Below, piece after piece: positions 1,877-15,723 of a stretch of 59,995 nucleotides of DNA. Below the pieces are notes generated by a model that had not been told where the DNA came from, searched no databases, and saw nothing but the letters and a program-made list of their open reading frames with translations. This DNA is from Syntrophaceticus sp. (GTDB lineage: Bacteria > Bacillota > DSM-12270 > Thermacetogeniales > Thermacetogeniaceae). How positions within the stretch are numbered: the stretch's first letter is position 1; each line of letters starts with the position of its first letter. Position numbers and translations under genes: made by a program. The stretch lies in the NCBI GenBank assembly GCA_012842275.1, contig DUSK01000095.1, forward strand, positions 1 through 59,995. Direction: 5' to 3'.

Positions 1877-2055
1877 CTTCCCTTCCGGTAATTGTCATAT
1901 CAATGAAGCTTTATTTTCTAACCGCCCGGGTTTATTCGGCGGGGTTCTGATTTTCTCTCCATCATATTCCTTCTTTAATTCATCTGATACATCAAACAGA
2001 CACCTTTACCCCCTTCCCTTGAATATACTGAATTGACAAAAAAGAGGAGGGGAGG

Positions 2056-3066
2056 ATGGATATGCGGAAGCTGATGCGTTCCCTAGGGATTGCCAAAGAG
2101 CGCTATACAGAACTTCCCAATGTGATCGGTGTGGGGGTCGGCTATAAAAAGCGCGGCAGACAGGACACCGGTGAGCCGGCTATCCTATTTTTTGTTGAGA
2201 AAAAAGTGCCTGTCGAAGCTTTGGCAATTGATGAACGTGTTCCCAAGCGTATCGGACGCAGCTGTACAGATGTAATTGAAGTTGGGGAGATACGCTTTCT
2301 TGGCCGCACAGATAAACTGCGGCCGGCAGTTCCCGGATCCAGTATCGGCCATTACAAAGTTACTGCCGGTACCTTTGGGGCTGTGGTGCGGGACCGGGAA
2401 ACTGGGCAGTTATTGATCCTTTCCAATAACCATGTTTTAGCCAATTCCACTGATGGCATTGATGGGAGATCAATGCCCGGGGATCCCATATACCAGCCAG
2501 GTGTCTATGACGGAGGAACAGAACAGGACCTAATAGGCCACCTGGAAAGATTTATTCCCATTTACCGGTTCAACAGGTCTGCTGACTGTAAAGTTGCTGC
2601 TATGGGAGTTAGGGCTGCCAATGCGGTTCTACATGCCTTTAAGCCCAATTACAGGATGCGGTTGGAAAAGGTGGGGGCCGAAAATCTGGTGGATTGTGCG
2701 GTTGCCCGTCCTGTGGATCCAAAGGAAATCAGTTCTGAAATCCTGGAGTTGGGCACTGTCAAGGGTATTGTGGATGCAGAACCCGGAATGCCGGTTAAAA
2801 AAAGCGGTCGCACTTCAGGGGTTACAAAGGGGAAGGTGACCGCTCTGCATGTAACCTTAAATGTATCTATGGGCACTAGTTCTGATGTGGTGCGTTTCCA
2901 TGACCAGATTATGTGTGAATTAAAGTCAAAGGCGGGAGACAGCGGTTCTCTGGTGTTGGATGAAGAAAACCGGGCAGTAGGGCTGCTTTTTGCCGGTTCT
3001 GAAGAATTTACGGTTATCAACCCCATTAAAACTGTATTAGATAAGTTAGGCGTTGATCTGGTATGA
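2056..3066 (+). CDS. chymotrypsin-fold (S1-like) serine peptidase
   Basis: GAGGAGGGGAGG RBS. Candidate catalytic His in SNNHVLAN and catalytic Ser in KAGDSGSLVL, followed by GLLFAGSE, typical of trypsin-like peptidase domains. No signal peptide seen. Confidence 0.7.
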   Translation: MDMRKLMRSLGIAKERYTELPNVIGVGVGYKKRGRQDTGEPAILFFVEKKVPVEALAIDERVPKRIGRSCTDVIEVGEIRFLGRTDKLRPAVPGSSIGHYKVTAGTFGAVVRDRETGQLLILSNNHVLANSTDGIDGRSMPGDPIYQPGVYDGGTEQDLIGHLERFIPIYRFNRSADCKVAAMGVRAANAVLHAFKPNYRMRLEKVGAENLVDCAVARPVDPKEISSEILELGTVKGIVDAEPGMPVKKSGRTSGVTKGKVTALHVTLNVSMGTSSDVVRFHDQIMCELKSKAGDSGSLVLDEENRAVGLLFAGSEEFTVINPIKTVLDKLGVDLV

Positions 3067-3947
3067 AATATCCGGATTTAGGAATTGCTCTGGGGGGAGG
3101 AGGGCTCTTAGGGGTAGCACACATCGGTGTTTTGGAGGTCCTAGAAGAGAACGGGATTTTACCGGCTATTGTGACCGGTACCAGTGCAGGAAGCCTTGTA
3201 GGCGCTCTCTATGCTGCCGGAGTAGAACCTTCAGCCTTAAGAAAACTGTCAGTGAGCTTGCAAAAAAAGGATCTCTTCTCCTGGAATTTTAACCCTTACT
3301 CCTTTATCAGGTTTTTGTTGGATAACCTTAGGGATATGGCCAATTTTTTAGAGGCGTCCCCAAGAGCCTTGTTCAGTGGGGAAAAGATCAGTGAACTGGT
3401 TGTTAATCTTACCAAGAAAAAACGCTTTAATGAGATCCCGGTGACTTTCGGTGTGGTGGCAGTGGATCTGATCACCGGAAAAAAAGTGGTGTTTTCCAAT
3501 AAAGTGATCAATCTGTCACCGGAAACCCTGTATTTCCCCAATGCTCCCTTAGGCTTGGCTGTCCAGGCCAGTTGTGCCATTCCCGGTGTTTTTGAACCGG
3601 TTCCCTACCGGGGGGCACTGCTCGCAGATGGTGGGCTTGCCGAAATGGTACCTGCTCAACTGGCACGCCATTTGGGCTCCCGTATTGTAGTGGCAGTGAG
3701 TTTAAAAAGAATGGGGAGTGTACAGGAACCGGAAACCCTTATCCGTGTGATCCAGCGGAGTATCGATATTATGACACTGCAGAACACGCAGCTTGATCTG
3801 AAGTTCGCTGATCTTGTTATTGACCCCCTTGCCTTTGATGCCAGCTTAGGGGATTTTGAACGGGTGCCTGAGCTATTAGATCGTGGGCGCCAGGCAGCCG
3901 AGAAGGCGATTCCGGCTTTGAAAAAGCTGTTGGGGATCAATAGCTAG
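3063..3947 (+). CDS. patatin-like phospholipase
   Basis: GIALGGGGLLG oxyanion motif, GTSAG nucleophile elbow (GxSxG), ADGG Asp motif. The start overlaps the upstream stop (ATGA). Confidence 0.85.
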   Translation: MKYPDLGIALGGGGLLGVAHIGVLEVLEENGILPAIVTGTSAGSLVGALYAAGVEPSALRKLSVSLQKKDLFSWNFNPYSFIRFLLDNLRDMANFLEASPRALFSGEKISELVVNLTKKKRFNEIPVTFGVVAVDLITGKKVVFSNKVINLSPETLYFPNAPLGLAVQASCAIPGVFEPVPYRGALLADGGLAEMVPAQLARHLGSRIVVAVSLKRMGSVQEPETLIRVIQRSIDIMTLQNTQLDLKFADLVIDPLAFDASLGDFERVPELLDRGRQAAEKAIPALKKLLGINS

Positions 3948-3977
3948 GAACACTTTCAATAAATGCCCATATTATGG
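3948..3977 (+). promoter_or_regulatory. mother-cell (sigma-K/sigma-E-like) promoter candidate
   Basis: GAACAC (AC 3950-3951), 16-nt spacer, CATATTATGG (3968-3977). Confidence 0.4.
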
Positions 3978-4049
3978 GATGGGACAGAAAGAAAGACTAA
4001 TGGCATTAGCTGGTACAGCAATGACAAAAAGTGAAAGGGGGATTTGGTG

Positions 4050-4412
4050 ATGGGCGGTTTTACCTATGATGAAAAGGCGCTTTCAGTTTTTAAAAGCCTG
4101 CGGCCCTACCTTGGCCCACAGGGAAACGGCTGTCTTATGGCTTTAGAAAGCATACTTGAGTTGCTTAATAGTGAACCAGCTAAAAAAGCGCTGGATTCTT
4201 TAAAAATCCTTAGCCCAGGGGAGGGGTTTAAAACCCTAGAACTGGAGAGTAAACAGCCTAAGTATTTGAGCCCATCTAAGCTTTTTCTACTGCAAGCCTT
4301 GTTATTTTTAGCCGATGCTCCTGTGTCAGCTAATATGGTTGTTGAAAGAGCAGAAAACGAAGAGGTCACAGAAGAAAATCATAACATATTGGATTATGAT
4401 GCTTACGTATAA
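4050..4412 (+). CDS. hypothetical protein, paralog of 5196-5492
   Basis: Track ORF 4044-4412; ATG 4050 has an AAAGGGGGA RBS. The N-terminus MGGFTYDEKALSVFKSLRPYLGPQGN..LESILELLNSE parallels MAVVMYDENAIQVLNSFRPYLGHKGN..LNGILDLLSSE. Hydrophobic LFLLQALLFL segment near the C-terminus. Confidence 0.65.
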   Translation: MGGFTYDEKALSVFKSLRPYLGPQGNGCLMALESILELLNSEPAKKALDSLKILSPGEGFKTLELESKQPKYLSPSKLFLLQALLFLADAPVSANMVVERAENEEVTEENHNILDYDAYV

Positions 4413-4424
4413 AAGGTAAAAATT

Positions 4425-4455
4425 GTAACACTTTGCTTTGAACAACATATTATGG
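4425..4455 (+). promoter_or_regulatory. mother-cell type promoter candidate for tiny peptide 1
   Basis: GTAACA, 16-nt spacer from AC, CATATTATGG (4446-4455). Confidence 0.4.
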
Positions 4456-4525
4456 AGTAAAAAACTAACTGATGTGGGTTGAATTGTAACAGATATGGTG
4501 CCCGCATTCAGACTGGAGGGATAAT

Positions 4526-4627
4526 ATGGAATCTAAGGGATTTGGTTTTGGTGGCGGATTTGGAGTCAATAGTTGGGCTTTTATTCTCTTCCTGATTCTG
4601 GTTTTGCTCTTCTTCGGTGACAATTAA
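4526..4627 (+). CDS. tiny membrane peptide, YjcZ / tiny_TM_bacill-like (33 aa)
   Basis: Hand translation MESKGFGFGGGFGVNSWAFILFLILVLLFFGDN. GGAGGG RBS 6 nt upstream. Too short for the ORF track. A Gly/Phe-rich head plus one hydrophobic helix resembles Bacillus YjcZ-type sporulation peptides. Confidence 0.7.
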   Translation: MESKGFGFGGGFGVNSWAFILFLILVLLFFGDN

Positions 4628-4645
4628 ATTCCTGACTGAAAACTT

Positions 4646-4676
4646 GTAACACCTTTCCTCAAAGAACATATTATGG
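4646..4676 (+). promoter_or_regulatory. mother-cell type promoter candidate for tiny peptide 2
   Basis: GTAACA, 16-nt spacer from AC, CATATTATGG (4667-4676). Confidence 0.4.
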
Positions 4677-4737
4677 TGTTGAAAAAAACAACCAGCTGAG
4701 GAAGGTCCGAAGCTGAGATGATTAGGAGGGATAATGG

Positions 4738-4824
4738 ATGGAGGCAAAGAGTTTTGGTTTCAAAAATAATATTGCGTTTATATTGTTCTTGATTCTGATT
4801 TTGCTCTTTTTCGGTGATAACTAA
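4738..4824 (+). CDS. tiny membrane peptide, YjcZ-like paralog (28 aa)
   Basis: Hand translation MEAKSFGFKNNIAFILFLILILLFFGDN, with AGGAGGG RBS upstream. The antisense track ORF 4508-4747 is rejected. Confidence 0.65.
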   Translation: MEAKSFGFKNNIAFILFLILILLFFGDN

Positions 4825-4831
4825 AATATAT

Positions 4832-4858
4832 AAGGCACCCGCTTAGGACGGGTGCCTT
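4832..4858 (+). terminator. hairpin / weak terminator after tiny peptide 2
   Basis: AAGGCACCCG / CGGGTGCCTT 10-bp stem with a 7-nt loop and only a short T tail. Confidence 0.45.
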
Positions 4859-4892
4859 TAGATTACAGCACAAAGCTTTTAACCCAAGACTT

Positions 4893-4923
4893 GTAACCCC
4901 TTTCCTAAAAAAACATATTATGG
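4893..4923 (+). promoter_or_regulatory. mother-cell type promoter candidate for tiny peptide 3
   Basis: GTAACC, 16-nt spacer from AC, CATATTATGG (4914-4923). Confidence 0.4.
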
Positions 4924-4987
4924 TGTAGAAGCCTGATTAATTTTCGGTCAGGTGGGATTTACCCGAATTTTGAATGGAGGGATGGTA

Positions 4988-5092
4988 ATGGAATCCAAGG
5001 GATTTGGTTTTGGCCGGGGATTTGATGGCAAATTTGCACTGATCTTATTCCTGATTCTGATTCTGCTTTTCTTCGGGGATCACAGATGGTAA
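4988..5092 (+). CDS. tiny membrane peptide, YjcZ-like paralog (34 aa)
   Basis: Hand translation MESKGFGFGRGFDGKFALILFLILILLFFGDHRW, with GGAGGGATGG RBS region upstream. Confidence 0.7.
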   Translation: MESKGFGFGRGFDGKFALILFLILILLFFGDHRW

Positions 5093-5128
5093 ACGGTTTT
5101 ATAGTTTAAACTTTGTACCGGGTTTGCT

Positions 5129-5161
5129 GGGAGGCCACCCGCATTTACGGTGTGGCCTCCC
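5129..5161 (+). terminator. stable hairpin after tiny peptide 3 (no clear U tract)
   Basis: GGGAGGCCAC / GTGGCCTCCC 10-bp GC-rich stem with a 13-nt loop. Confidence 0.35.
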
Positions 5162-5195
5162 CTTATCAAAACGGCAGCAAAAGAAGGGGAGGAAG

Positions 5196-5492
5196 ATGGC
5201 AGTTGTTATGTATGATGAGAATGCGATTCAAGTATTAAATAGTTTTCGTCCTTATCTGGGACATAAAGGCAATCTGATCCTTGATACCCTTAACGGGATA
5301 TTAGATTTACTTTCCAGTGAATCTGTTCAAGAATTCATTTCCCTGGTGCATAATTCCCAGCATAATTCCAGTGATCAGCATGCCCGGCAGTTATTTGAAG
5401 GCCAAGAAAAGAGGGAGGCCAATCCTTTTACCCTTTTCCTGATTCTGATCTTACTCCTTCTTTCTGATTTTAATGAAAGCCCAATATCATGA
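5196..5492 (+). CDS. hypothetical protein, paralog of 4050-4412
   Basis: Track ORF 5124-5492; ATG 5196 follows an AAGGGGAGG RBS. The C-terminal FTLFLILILLLLSDFN closely resembles the helix of the neighbouring tiny peptides. Confidence 0.65.
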   Translation: MAVVMYDENAIQVLNSFRPYLGHKGNLILDTLNGILDLLSSESVQEFISLVHNSQHNSSDQHARQLFEGQEKREANPFTLFLILILLLLSDFNESPIS

Positions 5493-6334: not shown

Positions 6335-6652
6335 ATGAGCATGGGCAAGGCCAAAACTGTAGAAAGAATTTTCCTGTTCGAACATATCTACGGCTGTGGC
6401 TATGATCACGGTTATAAGGACGGCTACAAAGATGGCTTTGCCGCAGGCTATCAACGGGCCAAAACAGAGTGCAGAGATGGTATCTGGAAGGCAGGAAGGG
6501 ATCAGGGCTATTTGGAGGGCCTTGAAGAAGGGTATTTGGCAGGCAAAAAGGATGCTGATGCGATCTTTGACCAGGGCTGGGACCAGGGGTACAGAAGGGG
6601 TTATGAGGATGGGGCTGCTGGTTCCGCGGGCACAGAAAGGCTTAAGCCCTAA
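6335..6652 (+). CDS. hypothetical GY-repeat protein (105 aa)
   Basis: AGGAGGGG RBS. Repeated [DE]-G-Y-x-x-G units (GYDHGYKDGYKDGFAAGY, DQGYLEGLEEGYLAG, DQGWDQGYRRGYEDG) reminiscent of Yae1/FliH-type GxxxG repeats. Confidence 0.55.
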   Translation: MSMGKAKTVERIFLFEHIYGCGYDHGYKDGYKDGFAAGYQRAKTECRDGIWKAGRDQGYLEGLEEGYLAGKKDADAIFDQGWDQGYRRGYEDGAAGSAGTERLKP

Positions 6653-6822: not shown

Positions 6823-7641
6823 GTGATTTCCAAAAAATTGCGCTATTCTATCTCCGCCATTCTTGTCGGTATACTGCTCACAGTGATGCCCTTAACAGCT
6901 TTTGCGGCCACAAGGTATGTCTATTATCAGGGCAGTCTCAGTGATCAGCTGTTGATCAGTATCCTGAAAAGGGTTTTTCCTTGTGATGATTTAAAAATCA
7001 TACGCCCCCAACCGGTTCCACAGCCTGAACCAGAACCACAGCCGGAACCGGAACCGGTGCCTCAGGATCCGCAGCCTGAGCCTCAAGAGCCAGAGCCTGA
7101 GCCTAAGGATCCACAGCCTGAACCTGAGCCTCAGGAGCCGCAAAAACCTGATCCACAGCCACAGCCACAGCCGCAACCGCAACCACAACCTCAGCCACAG
7201 CCACAACCTCAACCACAGCCGCAGCCTGAACCTAAACCTGGCTCTGATGTGATTGCTCTGACCCAGGATGAACAGAAGATGATCAATCTGGTCAACCAGG
7301 AGCGACAGAAACACGGGCTGAAACCTTTAGAGGTAGATTATCAATTGGTGAAACTGGCCAGGATGAAAAGCCAGGATATGGTGGACAAGAATTATTTCAG
7401 TCACCAGTCGCCAACCTATGGCTCTCCCTTTGACATGATGAAAAATGCCGGAGTGCGCTATCGCTGGGCAGGAGAAAACATAGCCGGTGCCGGCACTGTT
7501 GAGAGGGCGCATACCGCTTTGATGAATTCTGAGGGGCACCGCGCCAATATTTTAAATCCGAACTTTACCCATATCGGTGTCGGTATAGTTAAAGGCGGCC
7601 CCTATGGAATGATGTTTACCCAGATGTTTATTGGAAAATAG
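6823..7641 (+). CDS. YkwD-like CAP/SCP domain protein with N-terminal anchor and Pro-rich linker
   Basis: GTG start after AAAGGAGACGA. N-terminal hydrophobic signal/anchor, then a PE/PQ linker. The C-terminal domain reads LVNQERQKHGLKPL..YFSHQSPTYGSPFDM..AGENIA..ALMNSEGHRANILNPNFTHIGVG, typical of YkwD/CAP. Confidence 0.8.
   Translation: MISKKLRYSISAILVGILLTVMPLTAFAATRYVYYQGSLSDQLLISILKRVFPCDDLKIIRPQPVPQPEPEPQPEPEPVPQDPQPEPQEPEPEPKDPQPEPEPQEPQKPDPQPQPQPQPQPQPQPQPQPQPQPQPEPKPGSDVIALTQDEQKMINLVNQERQKHGLKPLEVDYQLVKLARMKSQDMVDKNYFSHQSPTYGSPFDMMKNAGVRYRWAGENIAGAGTVERAHTALMNSEGHRANILNPNFTHIGVGIVKGGPYGMMFTQMFIGK
7003..7242 (+). repeat. in-frame Pro-Glu/Pro-Gln low-complexity coding repeat
   Basis: About 80 codons of PEPEPQ-type units, including 12 consecutive CCN-CAR (PQ) dipeptide units at 7153-7224. 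Confidence 0.9.
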
Positions 7642-7726
7642 GCTAATCCAAAAGACAGAACAAAGGGAAGAAGTCACCCATTAGAGGAAAAAGGAAAGCA
7701 TTGTGCATATAATACAGAATTTACCT

Positions 7727-7772: not shown

Positions 7773-7800
7773 ACCCTCTTGATCCAGCAGACATATTATA
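7773..7800 (+). promoter_or_regulatory. mother-cell (sigma-K/sigma-E-like) promoter candidate for the sipL-like gene
   Basis: AC (7773-7774), 17-nt spacer, CATATTATA (7792-7800), which fits CATAnnnTA. Confidence 0.45.
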
Positions 7801-7838: not shown

Positions 7839-9371
7839 ATGAACAACTGTGAAACATTAAAGATCGAACATGTTGTCGGTGAGAGATCAAAACAAGCTGT
7901 TGTACAGGGTGATTTCCAAGTACCCGAACCCAAACCGGGAATAGAAAAAATTATCTCTATCGATAAAACAGTGAAGATAAAAAAGGTGGAAGTGATCAAA
8001 AATAAAGTGATCATTGAGGGGCACCTCAATTTGCAGATCGTTTATGCTGCTGACTGTCCCGACCAGCCGGTTCATCATACCCATGCACGTCTGGAATTTA
8101 CGCAGTTTGTGGATATACCAGGTGCTGAACCGGGAATGAACGCATGGGCAAAGGTGAAGGTCGAGGATGTCCAGGGAAAGGTAAAGGGCCACCACGGGCG
8201 CCTATTTGATGTTACAGCTATTATCTTCATTCAGGTGAAGGTAACAGAATTAGCTGAGATCTCCTTGATGGTAACACCGCCTCCGGGAGTAAACGCCATT
8301 ACCGAACGGCTGCGCATTGAGGAAGTGATCGCTGAAGGCACTACTCAGGCAATGGTTTCCGGCCGGTTCCGGGTACCACCGGAGAAGCCCCCTGTAGAAA
8401 AGGTGCTGGATGTGGATGCCAGTGTAACAATTACAGATAAAAAGATCATTCAGGACAAGGTAATTGTTGAGGGGGATATTAGCCTGCAGATCATCTATGT
8501 GGCTGCCCTAGCCAGCCAACCTGTCCACCATATGCACCAGACACTGCATTTTACCCAGTTCATTGAGGTTTTTGGCGCTGAACCGGGGATGAATGTCACA
8601 GTTGATGAGACCATCACACACACCAGTTTCGATATGATAAACCCGCACACAGTAGGTGTAGAGGTGATCATTGACCTGACCGCCAAGGTAACCGAACCCA
8701 GAGAACTGGATGTTGTGGTGGATCTGTTAGGGGTAGAGACCTCCCGGGAACTGCTTAGGGTGGATAATGTTGTGGGAGAGGACCACACCCAGGTTAATAT
8801 TGCCGAACTTGCGCACATCCCCATCGAAAAGCCTGCTGCTGTCAAAATCTTAGATATCAAAGTGCATAAGGTGGAAGTCCTGCCTGAGGATGTGGCCATT
8901 ATCAAGGATAAGGTGATTGTCAGCGGGAAGATCGAAGCACAGGTGCTCTATGTCAGCGATATGCCTGATCAGTCTGTGCATCATTTTGAGGCCAAGATCA
9001 AGTTCCGCAGCTTTATTCCAATTCCCGGCGCCATGCCTGAAATGTCAGCCCAGGTACAGGCGGCAGTGGAGCATGTGGCAGGGCGTATAGACGGTGCCAC
9101 CAGAAGGCCGACCCTGGAGATAATTCTCAATTTAACGGCCCGGGTTGTGGAAATGGTACAGATCTATGTGGTGGTCTGTGAGGAAATTGGGCCTGTGCCA
9201 CCTCCTACACCAAGCTGTCCTTTTGAACACGTGGTGCAGCCCGGTGATACCATCTACAAATTGTCATTGAGGTACAATGTTTCTGTTGACAGTATCCTTG
9301 CCCTCAATCCAGGGGTTGATCCTTATAACCTCCAGATCGGGTCGGTTTTGATTATCCCCTGTGACCCGTAG
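7839..9371 (+). CDS. SipL/SpoVID-like coat morphogenetic protein: three SPOCS (DUF3794-type) repeats plus a C-terminal LysM
   Basis: Three ~135-aa internal repeats (aa 7-140, 158-290, 306-440), each with VxGE..KPxxEKIL..DKVIVEG..LQIxYxA..QPVHH..FTQF..PGAEPGM. The C-terminal HVVQPGDTIYKLSLRYNVSVDSILALNP..LQIGSVLIIP is a LysM. Confidence 0.8.
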   Translation: MNNCETLKIEHVVGERSKQAVVQGDFQVPEPKPGIEKIISIDKTVKIKKVEVIKNKVIIEGHLNLQIVYAADCPDQPVHHTHARLEFTQFVDIPGAEPGMNAWAKVKVEDVQGKVKGHHGRLFDVTAIIFIQVKVTELAEISLMVTPPPGVNAITERLRIEEVIAEGTTQAMVSGRFRVPPEKPPVEKVLDVDASVTITDKKIIQDKVIVEGDISLQIIYVAALASQPVHHMHQTLHFTQFIEVFGAEPGMNVTVDETITHTSFDMINPHTVGVEVIIDLTAKVTEPRELDVVVDLLGVETSRELLRVDNVVGEDHTQVNIAELAHIPIEKPAAVKILDIKVHKVEVLPEDVAIIKDKVIVSGKIEAQVLYVSDMPDQSVHHFEAKIKFRSFIPIPGAMPEMSAQVQAAVEHVAGRIDGATRRPTLEIILNLTARVVEMVQIYVVVCEEIGPVPPPTPSCPFEHVVQPGDTIYKLSLRYNVSVDSILALNPGVDPYNLQIGSVLIIPCDP

Positions 9372-9438: not shown

Positions 9439-9467
9439 GTTTAATGCTTCAATATTTGGTAATAATA
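9439..9467 (+). promoter_or_regulatory. forespore sigma-F-like promoter candidate for spoIIR
   Basis: GTTTA, 14 nt, GGTAATAATA resembles the sigma-F -35 GYATA / -10 GGnnAnAnTA pattern. spoIIR is sigma-F dependent in Bacillus. Confidence 0.3.
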
Positions 9468-9502: not shown

Positions 9503-10165
9503 ATGATGAAAAAACTGATCTGTGCCTTTTTCCTCAGCCTAGCTTTATATTCCTTACTGGCCTTGCTTCCGGTGGAGGGCCAGCAGGGTCAGCCGGTAGA
9601 GGGGGTTGTGCGCTTTCATGTGATAGCCAACAGCGACAGTTCCGCGGATCAGGAACTGAAACTTGCGGTGCGGGATGAGGTTCTTGCTTACCTGCGTCCG
9701 GAACTGGAAAATGTGCAGGACAAAGAAACAGCTGCACAGATAATTCAGAGCAGATTATCACAGATAGAGGAAGTGGCTGAAGGTGTGCTGTGTTCACAGG
9801 GTTGCAGTGATCAGGTAAAGGCTTATTACGGGGTTTTTGACTTTCCGGCCAGGACTTACGGAGAAAAGACCTTTCCTGAAGGGAAATATGAGGCTCTCAG
9901 AATAGTGCTGGGAGCAGGCGGCGGTAAAAACTGGTGGTGCTGTCTCTTCCCACCCCTGTGTTATGCGGATTTAACCAATACCGCCCGGCAGTTTATGGAA
10001 GGAGAGACTGAAGGCAGTGAGCGGTTAAACAATGAAGCTGAAGGAGATGCTGAAACAAATGAGGGGGAGGGAGAAAAATATTATCTGACCAGCAAGATCG
10101 GTGAGTGGCTGGAAAATTCAAAGGATAACCCCATTCTTTCCTGGCTCTGGCCCTATAATAGTTAA
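9503..10165 (+). CDS. spoIIR: stage II sporulation protein R
   Basis: Signal/anchor, then VRFHVIANSDSSADQELKLAVRDEVL and GGKNWWCCLFPPLCY, the hallmark SpoIIR motifs. Acidic C-terminal extension. Confidence 0.9.
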   Translation: MMKKLICAFFLSLALYSLLALLPVEGQQGQPVEGVVRFHVIANSDSSADQELKLAVRDEVLAYLRPELENVQDKETAAQIIQSRLSQIEEVAEGVLCSQGCSDQVKAYYGVFDFPARTYGEKTFPEGKYEALRIVLGAGGGKNWWCCLFPPLCYADLTNTARQFMEGETEGSERLNNEAEGDAETNEGEGEKYYLTSKIGEWLENSKDNPILSWLWPYNS

Positions 10166-15518: not shown

Positions 15519-15723
15519 GGTTTATCCCTGTAAGCGCAGCGACCTTACGAAGGTTGTTACTTGCCCTTGACGAAGGAGCAGGTAACGACAGCTGAAGCTC
15601 AACATGGATGTTGAGCTAGGCGACTCTGCGCCATGGATGGCGTCATAGGAGCCGGTCAGCTGTCGTCTGCGACGAGTCTTAGGGCAAGTTCAACCGAGTT
15701 CAGGAGCAAGCGCAGGGATAAAC
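15519..15723 (+). ncRNA. candidate structured RNA of unknown class (strand tentative)
   Basis: Nested long-range complementarity: 15520-15530/15713-15723 (11 bp), 15552-15567/15681-15695 (14 bp with a small loop) and 15585-15595/15656-15666 (11 bp). These enclose two hairpins, 15597-15616 and 15628-15643, with identical CA-UGGA-UG tips. No ORF of 60 aa or more in the 360-nt gap. Confidence 0.45.

Follow-up and report, generated by a model that had tools for sequence, protein, structure and literature searches.

Organization of the array

We analysed a 59,995-bp stretch of DNA (the window) from an uncultured spore-forming Thermacetogeniaceae bacterium, in which three very short open reading frames (ORFs), named pep1, pep2 and pep3 in 5'->3' order, follow one another in a tandem array. 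Each encodes a tiny peptide with a single hydrophobic helix, and each has a promoter-like cassette and a Shine-Dalgarno (SD) sequence of its own, as a model's earlier reading of the same DNA, made from the letters and without database searches (the sequence-only reading), had claimed. The elements of the array are as follows.

4425..4453, + strand: promoter P1, with -35 GTAAC (4425-4429), a 16-nucleotide (nt) spacer and -10 CATATTAT (4446-4453); 85% conserved in four relatives
4515..4520, + strand: SD of pep1, GGAGGG, unpaired in the predicted leader fold
4526..4627, + strand: pep1, 33 amino acids (aa), MESKGFGFGGGFGVNSWAFILFLILVLLFFGDN; translation checked
4624..4634, + strand: deletion junction, from the four-way alignment of the window with the loci L004, L005 and L039 of close relatives
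4646..4674, + strand: promoter P2, GTAAC-N16-CATATTAT
4725..4730, + strand: SD of pep2, GGAGGG, unpaired in the predicted leader fold
4738..4824, + strand: pep2, 28 aa, MEAKSFGFKNNIAFILFLILILLFFGDN; translation checked
4832..4858, + strand: terminator-like hairpin 3' of pep2, GGCACCCG...CGGGTGCC, then UUUAGAUU; dG -19.1 kcal/mol, z = -4.85
4893..4921, + strand: promoter P3, GTAAC-N16-CATATTAT
4976..4981, + strand: SD of pep3, GGAGGG, 100% conserved among relatives
4988..5092, + strand: pep3, 34 aa, MESKGFGFGRGFDGKFALILFLILILLFFGDHRW; translation checked
5129..5161, + strand: strong hairpin between pep3 and the downstream gene p98, GGGAGGCCAC...GTGGCCTCCC; predicted fold

The start-to-start distances are 212 and 250 bp. 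The positions, strand (+), translations and 210-250 bp spacing previously assigned to the three ORFs are all exact, and a GGAGGG-type ribosome-binding site is indeed present ahead of each of them (3/3), 5-8 nt from the ATG. In the minimum free energy (MFE) folds of the leaders the SD is unpaired in three of three, with z-scores of -1.35, -1.90 and +0.32. A second in-frame ATG lies 6 nt upstream of the pep3 start, at 4982, and is not likely to be used, because it is too close to the SD. The three peptides combine a Gly/Phe-rich head with the nearly unvarying core AFILFLILILLFFGD; pep2 and pep3 are 75-79% identical to pep1, and the 19 invariant columns fall mostly in the block A-x-ILFLIL-x-LLFFGD.

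The description of these genes as unannotated holds in part. The Joint Genome Institute (JGI) has called the 33-aa gene on near-identical metagenome contigs (99.6-99.9% nucleotide identity), and on one of these the 28-aa gene as well; the exact sequence of pep3 returned no database record on look-up.

The hairpin at 4832-4858 keeps its stem in relatives and varies in its loop; in the consensus scan it was picked up as a minus-strand element. The segment that holds the second hairpin (5124-5165) is 95% identical among relatives, which places it first among all segments other than the SD sequences, above the coding regions. This hairpin is probably the terminator of pep3. Its U-tract is weak, however, so that it may be more than a terminator; it could alternatively be a regulatory element of p98.

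The array has also lost material. One whole unit, consisting of the pep1 terminator hairpin, a promoter and a 25-26-aa gene (MGFSNFDNNFAFILFLVLILLFFGKN), is gone from the window at 4624-4634, and is kept in the three close relatives (L004, 323-563; L005, 4103-4356; and L039). The junction lies at repeated gene ends, as unequal crossover would be expected to leave it.

Selection on the reading frames

The sequence-only reading had argued for real genes, and not decaying repeats, from a coding part more conserved than the spacers. The four-way alignment bears this out. Mean pairwise identity per segment is 0.91-0.93 in the coding sequences (CDS), 0.90-1.00 from SD to ATG and 0.85-0.89 in the promoter cassettes; in the remaining parts it falls to 0.66-0.82 (leaders) and 0.50-0.57 (spacers).

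The substitutions themselves are strongly biased towards synonymous changes. The corresponding array of L004, which is ~83% identical to the window at the DNA level, was retrieved through its exact pep1 identity. The peptide of pep1 is accordingly identical in the two, with 5 synonymous differences between the genes; pep2 shows 8 synonymous differences and 1 non-synonymous one, and pep3 shows 6 and 5, the non-synonymous ones all falling in the variable head. Over the three orthologous pairs this amounts to 19 synonymous and 6 non-synonymous differences, a non-synonymous to synonymous ratio (pN/pS) of 0.084. In the unbiased subset, pep2 and pep3 only, there are 14 and 6, and pN/pS is ~0.11. An all-pairs dN/dS of 0.068 for the helix core is not used as evidence, the loci having been chosen by amino-acid pattern. 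Judged by these substitution patterns, the reading frames of pep1-pep3 are under purifying selection, and we have little doubt that the three are real membrane-peptide genes.

A small family in anaerobic endospore-formers

A profile search, with a peptide alignment headed by a 46-aa extended ORF as the query, returned 271 matches at E <= 10, of which at least 80 or so reached E < 1e-3. The 120 matches that were listed are all 26-62 aa long, and no precomputed Pfam domain is recorded on any of them. The sources named among the listed matches are Moorella/Neomoorella, Thermacetogenium phaeum, Thermincola, Desulfofundulus luciae, Syntrophaceticus and a metagenome-assembled genome (MAG) labelled Thermoanaerobacter. 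Moorella, Thermacetogenium, Syntrophaceticus, Thermincola and Desulfofundulus are endospore-formers. The family is small: 30 clusters were all that an exhaustive search of 1.84 billion representatives turned up at E <= 1e-3. A pattern scan over a genome collection matched more than 599 times, and because of the shortness of the peptides tblastn confirmed two loci.

Across the family alignment, a variable G/F/Y-rich head precedes the core (A/S)F-ILFLIL(I/V)LLFFG-D, usually with 1-3 more residues. Scanning 50 loci yielded 67 family ORFs of 25-55 aa. A GGAGG-type SD precedes all 67, the start codon is ATG in 65, and the start, SD and stop signals are intact in every copy. As to copy number in relatives, which the sequence-only reading had proposed to compare, tandem arrays are the rule, with 2-5 copies per locus. 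There are four copies in the closest relatives of the window, three in Thermacetogenium sp., four or five on a Syntrophaceticus-like contig, two in Thermincola potens, three each in Desulfofundulus and the MAG, and three within 4 kb in M. thermoacetica. As these alignments and scans show, the design of the gene unit is conserved family-wide, across several orders of anaerobic endospore-formers.

Neither the motif LILILLFFG nor the locus tags of four named family members were found in the literature searched, and a paper on the Moorella spore proteome does not mention such peptides. The family is sequence-distinct and unnamed, and is not covered by a curated model.

Promoter cassettes

The sequence-only reading had placed a conserved cassette, (T)TGTAAC followed by 16 nt and a second motif, upstream of each ORF. 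Such a cassette is present at each: full copies of the form GTAAC-N16-CATATTATGG lie at 4425-4455, 4646-4676 and 4893-4923, ~70-80 nt upstream of the ORFs. A second TTGTAAC, in the pep1 leader (4484-4490), is unconserved in relatives. In the whole 60-kb window the exact string CATATTATGG has four occurrences, each within one of these cassettes, the fourth being GGAAC-N16-CATATTATGG at 3947-3977, ahead of the ORF of the upstream gene p120:

3947..3975, + strand: sigma-K-type promoter of the 120-aa gene p120, GGAAC-N16-CATATTAT; fourth copy of the cassette

The p120 orthologue of Thermacetogenium sp. (L006) has a corresponding promoter element upstream.

The sequence CATATTAT is the canonical -10 box of mother cell sigma factors (Saujet et al. 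2013; PMC3789822), and the -35 element of sigma-K is AC (PMC3789822). All four cassettes of the window, which read AC-N16-CATATTAT, have the make-up of a sigma-K-type promoter (-35 AC, ~16-nt spacer, -10 CATAnnnT(A)). The same holds for most of the family: 31 of the 45 non-redundant family upstream regions have AC-N15-17-CATAnnnT at a distance of <=150 nt, whereas 1000 shuffles gave 1.19 on average and never more than 6. When the -10 box alone served as the anchor, the -35 element (G)T(A/C)AC was recovered, with C at -17 in 28 of 33 promoters, among them 10 of 12 from distant lineages that have unrelated spacers. With the sigma-A-compatible anchor AC-N17-19-TAnnAT, the dinucleotide preceding TAnnAT was CA in 28 of 28. 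Among the 45 family upstream regions there were no sigma-E-, sigma-F- or sigma-G-type patterns, no ATA-type -35 element (as for sigma-E) and no sigma-A match of >=10/12.

Another gene of the window provides a comparison. spoIIR (9503-10165) has a clean sigma-F-type promoter, GTTTA-N14-GGTAATAATA, at 9439-9467 (+), and sigma classes are therefore distinguishable in this organism. From these motifs, expression of pep1-pep3 in the mother cell late in sporulation appears likely.

Relation to YjcZ and other small peptides

The sequence-only reading had likened the peptides to the Bacillus YjcZ (tiny_TM_bacill) sporulation peptides and had proposed a search with the corresponding hidden Markov models (HMMs). 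The resemblance stands for architecture, copy number and promoter class; it does not extend to membership by sequence. Among 37 aligned members, including pep1-pep3, the models PF09680 (YjcZ_2) and TIGR01732 (tiny_TM_bacill) gave no match at E <= 10, though both detected a synthetic YjcZ-consensus probe used as a positive control (49.6 bits and 2.9e-13 with PF09680; 41.4 bits and 8.7e-11 with TIGR01732). PF09680 is precomputed in 120 of 120 real YjcZ proteins listed, versus 0 of the 120 listed matches of the peptide family.

A comparison of the two families with hhalign gave a probability of 66% and a score of 23.0, with the alignment in register from FA to FA and from closing Gly to closing Gly. 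We nevertheless rejected the homology it suggested, because the core-shuffle control failed: when the 15 YjcZ core columns were permuted, the mean score was 19.8 +/- 4.1, and 42 of 200 permutations reached the real score. Reciprocal unfiltered HMMs gave cross-family medians of -4.0 and 0.6 bits, versus -1.3 and -0.3 for shuffled sequences and self medians of 47-62 bits. On these comparisons the peptides are not members of YjcZ, and homology beyond composition is not demonstrable. One family member, P0087 of Desulfofundulus luciae (L048, 4001-4111), bears the UniRef name 'Sporulation protein YjcZ', yet neither PF09680 nor TIGR01732 matches it at E <= 10. The curated models lend this name no support, and it seems to have arisen by annotation transfer.

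The likeness in design is nevertheless extensive. Peptides of both families have 25-60 aa, with a variable Gly-rich (G/Y/F) head and then a nearly invariant hydrophobic stretch of ~15 residues that runs from F-A to an invariant Gly (FALIVVLFILLIIVG in YjcZ and FAFILFLILILLFFG in the peptide family, FA to G over 15 residues in both). Both occur as several paralogues per genome in endospore-forming hosts, and some members of the peptide family (e.g. P0098) have the GYGG head and GGY tail style of YjcZ. The promoter class also agrees: B. subtilis yjcZ is a member of the sigma-K regulon (PMC517825), and the peptide family has sigma-K-type promoters. The two differ in that the named hosts among the 120 listed YjcZ proteins are almost all Bacillales, as opposed to Moorella, Thermacetogenium, Thermincola, Desulfofundulus and Syntrophaceticus, and in that the peptides described here end in Gly-Asp, usually with 1-3 residues more, and have their helix also fused in p98.

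SpoVM and CmpA offer a further parallel, being tiny peptides made by the mother cell, with a role at the forespore surface in coat or cortex morphogenesis; the array lies ~3 kb from sipL. They differ from the present peptides in that the helix of SpoVM is amphipathic and lies at the surface, CmpA lacks the character of a hydrophobic transmembrane peptide, and both are encoded by single-copy genes. To our knowledge, neither resembles the peptide family in sequence.

Neighbouring genes

The array lies between two paralogous genes.

4050..4412, + strand: p120, 120 aa, paralogous to p98; its N-terminal domain is YDExAL..S(L/F)RPYLG, and its hydrophobic segment, LFLLQALLFLAD, is degenerate
5196..5492, + strand: p98, 98 aa, with an N-terminal RPYLG domain and the C-terminal helix NPFTLFLILILLLLSDF, the transmembrane module of the peptides (DNA 5427-5468)

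The two proteins match with E = 1e-12 in BLASTP and have the N-terminal YDExALxVxxSxRPYLG domain in common; p120 has no Pfam or NCBIfam match. At the C-terminus of p98, NPFTLFLILILLLLSDF agrees with the peptide core at 10 of 14 residues; between the stretches of DNA that encode them the identity is 71% (DNA repeat family D1). This match shows the family helix, (A/S)F-ILFLILILLFFG-D, to be at the same time the predicted C-terminal anchor of the adjacent p98; the peptides can therefore be seen as free-standing copies of the p98 anchoring helix. Proteins of the p98 family occur in Thermacetogeniaceae only. The best match (94% identity) comes from a MAG of Thermacetogeniaceae, and this assigns the organism of the window to that group. 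An AlphaFold (AF2) model of p98 has low confidence (pLDDT 62.6, pTM 0.37) and is not used here; it depicts a small domain of three helices, then a disordered linker and, at residues 77-92, a C-terminal helix.

The genes around the array run in the order NAL1-like protease, patatin, p120, peptides, p98, YbaB-like, p162, p105, YkwD-family protein, SipL and SpoIIR, a block whose synteny is seen only within Thermacetogeniaceae. Veg, the YkwD-family spore protein, SipL and SpoIIR are all encoded in the neighbourhood. Upstream of the operon of the NAL1/trypsin-like 336-aa gene and patatin lies a sigma-E-like motif, TCATATT-N12-CATCTGAT, at 1962-1988 (+). The 105-aa protein (6335-6652, +) contains repeated GYxxGYxxG motifs and has weak FliH-like matches only, and a 272-aa protein (6823-7641, +) matches the YkwD-family spore domain TIGR02909 with 203 bits.

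Outside Thermacetogeniaceae the peptide units occupy other sites, often among spore genes. In Desulfofundulus luciae (L048, 3819-4273) and in the MAG labelled Thermoanaerobacter (L049, 4001-4445), a peptide triplet whose members have C-terminal GDG(I/F)FYWG extensions lies in a spore-gene island with SpoVR, spore photoproduct lyase, Ku, LigD, HSP20 and two gerPA-like genes. In M. thermoacetica (L007), a 44-aa member (4001-4135, +) is divergent from sigK (3149-3829, -; TIGR02846, 344 bits), the two being 171 nt apart. We rejected adjacency to sigK as a family-wide trait, as it is found only at M. thermoacetica-type loci (also L026) and not at other Moorella-type loci. A patatin-like phospholipase gene adjoins family members in Thermacetogeniaceae (window 3063-3947) and in M. 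thermoacetica (L007, from 7888, next to a peptide at 7567-7653), that is, in two different orders.

Proposed role and alternatives

On balance, we favour the view that pep1-pep3 form a tandem array of independently transcribed late mother-cell genes for membrane peptides, and that these are a functional counterpart of YjcZ. Sigma-K RNA polymerase would switch the genes on late in sporulation, in the mother cell, and their mRNAs would be translated efficiently. The peptides would then insert in the style of tail anchors, with the Lys-bearing N-terminal head in the mother-cell cytoplasm and the acidic C-terminus of 1-3 residues on the far side, into the two membranes accessible to the mother cell: its own and the outer one of the forespore. 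They would act in bulk, in stoichiometric amounts, so that copy number (2-5 among relatives), changed by unequal crossover, would set their dosage. Through the invariant, Phe-lined helix they may associate with themselves and pair with p98 and p120, which have the same helix. On a helical wheel calculated from the sequence of pep1, Phe19, Phe22, Phe29 and Phe30 fall on an arc of ~100 degrees, and this Phe face is a plausible surface for both kinds of contact. The peptides would thus be, in anaerobic spore-formers, what the YjcZ peptides are in Bacillales. We put forward the stoichiometric helix-pairing role tentatively, and with considerable doubt.

In a bolder version, which we consider improbable as it stands, the peptides, p98 and p120 would make up one sigma-K-controlled membrane module. 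The headless helices would co-assemble with the RPYLG proteins in the outer forespore membrane. Array copy number would determine how many free helices there are per anchored one, and thereby how large or how active the complex becomes; it might act on coat attachment or on patatin-linked membrane remodelling. If true, a complex of the spore membrane would here be adjusted through the number of genes for free transmembrane helices, which would be a new principle and would give the first functional handle on YjcZ-like peptides.

Several observations weigh against the view of late mother-cell peptides. sipL (7839-9371), whose C. difficile counterpart is a target of sigma-E, has AC-N17-CATATTAT upstream at 7773-7799 (+), and the choice of sigma-K over sigma-E is for this reason weaker than the assignment to the mother cell. 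The strict motif is missing from 14 of the 45 upstream regions, including those of the whole Moorella 44-45-aa subfamily; some of the regions that lack it belong to internal array members, for which co-transcription is possible. Read differently, the cassette makes a weak sigma-A promoter (9/12 for cassettes 1 and 2), and what speaks for sigma-K dependence is the matching of motifs. The dN/dS evidence is partly biased by ascertainment, L004 having been found by exact pep1 identity and the metagenome loci by an amino-acid pattern. The hydrophobic core, with ~14-16 residues, is short for spanning a bilayer, and the topology, the target membrane and the pairing with p98 and p120 are inferences.

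Among the alternatives, the one that fares best, although it is unlikely, takes the peptides for general small membrane proteins with no tie to sporulation, for example transporter or enzyme modulators, transcribed by the housekeeping or another sigma factor from GTAACA-17-TATTAT. A sigma-70 scan agrees with this in scoring cassettes 1 and 2 at 9/12, and 15 of the 45 family upstream regions reach 9/12, against 6.1 in shuffles; several contexts (Thermincola L047, Moorella L008) also lack obvious spore genes. However, none of the 45 regions reaches 10/12 for sigma-A, the -35 element is centred on AC and is not TTGACA, and the CA before TAnnAT, for which sigma-A has no need, is invariant (28/28). 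In addition, spore-gene neighbourhoods recur, and all the named hosts are endospore-formers.

A slightly less probable alternative is that the peptides are holin-like or detergent-like disruptors of the mother-cell membrane that serve spore release, possibly with the adjacent patatin-like phospholipase. The late, sigma-K-type promoters would suit such a task, as would the extreme hydrophobicity, the short helix, the multiple copies and the patatin gene that adjoins members in both Thermacetogeniaceae and M. thermoacetica. Yet no lysin or endolysin partner is present, patatin adjacency is missing from most other family contexts, and the patatin operon apparently has a different, sigma-E-like motif upstream. 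Furthermore, the helix is near-invariant across orders, which suggests specific packing and not generic membrane damage.

Less credible still are toxins of type I toxin-antitoxin systems, controlled by antisense RNA and amplified in tandem. Like the products of type I toxin arrays (Ldr, Ibs, Zor, Fst, BsrG-type; compare the ldr, ibs and zor loci), the peptides are small, hydrophobic and single-helical, and are encoded in tandem repeats, each with a promoter of its own. Within pep1 there is also a weak minus-strand site that resembles a promoter (4623-4595), and the hairpin at 4832-4858 doubles as a minus-strand terminator. The -10 candidate of that site, however, is the reverse complement of conserved Ile-Leu codons. 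In the four-way alignment no conserved element of an antisense gene was found beyond promoter, SD, CDS and terminator, which account for everything that is conserved, and the spacers (50-57%) and leaders are the least conserved parts. Unlike in typical type I toxin mRNAs, the SD is free in all three leader MFE folds; the promoter is of sporulation type, and a peptide near-invariant across orders would be unusual for such toxins.

A last alternative, in which the ORFs would serve no separate function and be either non-coding repeats or pseudogene remnants left from the C-terminus of p98, is effectively excluded, for although the helix DNA repeat is common to p98 and the array gains and loses units, the frame is under purifying selection, ATG, SD and stop are intact in 67 of 67 copies, and the family occurs in genera that lack p98.

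Two further candidates were rejected. No transporter, protease or modification genes that would accompany a double-glycine-leader bacteriocin or a precursor of a ribosomally synthesized and post-translationally modified peptide (RiPP) lie nearby, and the head is unlike a leader peptide. An Agr-type pheromone was dismissed because the AgrB near Moorella L007 is adjoined by a 40-aa gene of its own.

Implications and a further observation

Tiny membrane peptides are routinely missed in annotation, and the YjcZ class, although known for two decades, still has no function assigned. The peptides described here would be a second, sequence-distinct family with YjcZ-like architecture, multi-copy habit and sigma-K-type promoter, and the parallel between two families that look unrelated argues for a general requirement for such peptides in the late assembly of spores. 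Practical handles are at hand in the helix that is also fused in p98, in natural copy-number variants and in cultured hosts, and the motif (A/S)F-ILFLILILLFFG-D together with the promoter signature can aid annotation. The family's hosts are thermophilic anaerobes, and of these Moorella forms the most heat-resistant spores known among food-spoilage organisms (PMC8745062).

Elsewhere in the window, at 15545-15702 (+), there is an Rfam match to the TwoAYGGAY RNA (RF01731) that covers the full length of the model and scores 54.4 bits, versus a gathering score of 43.

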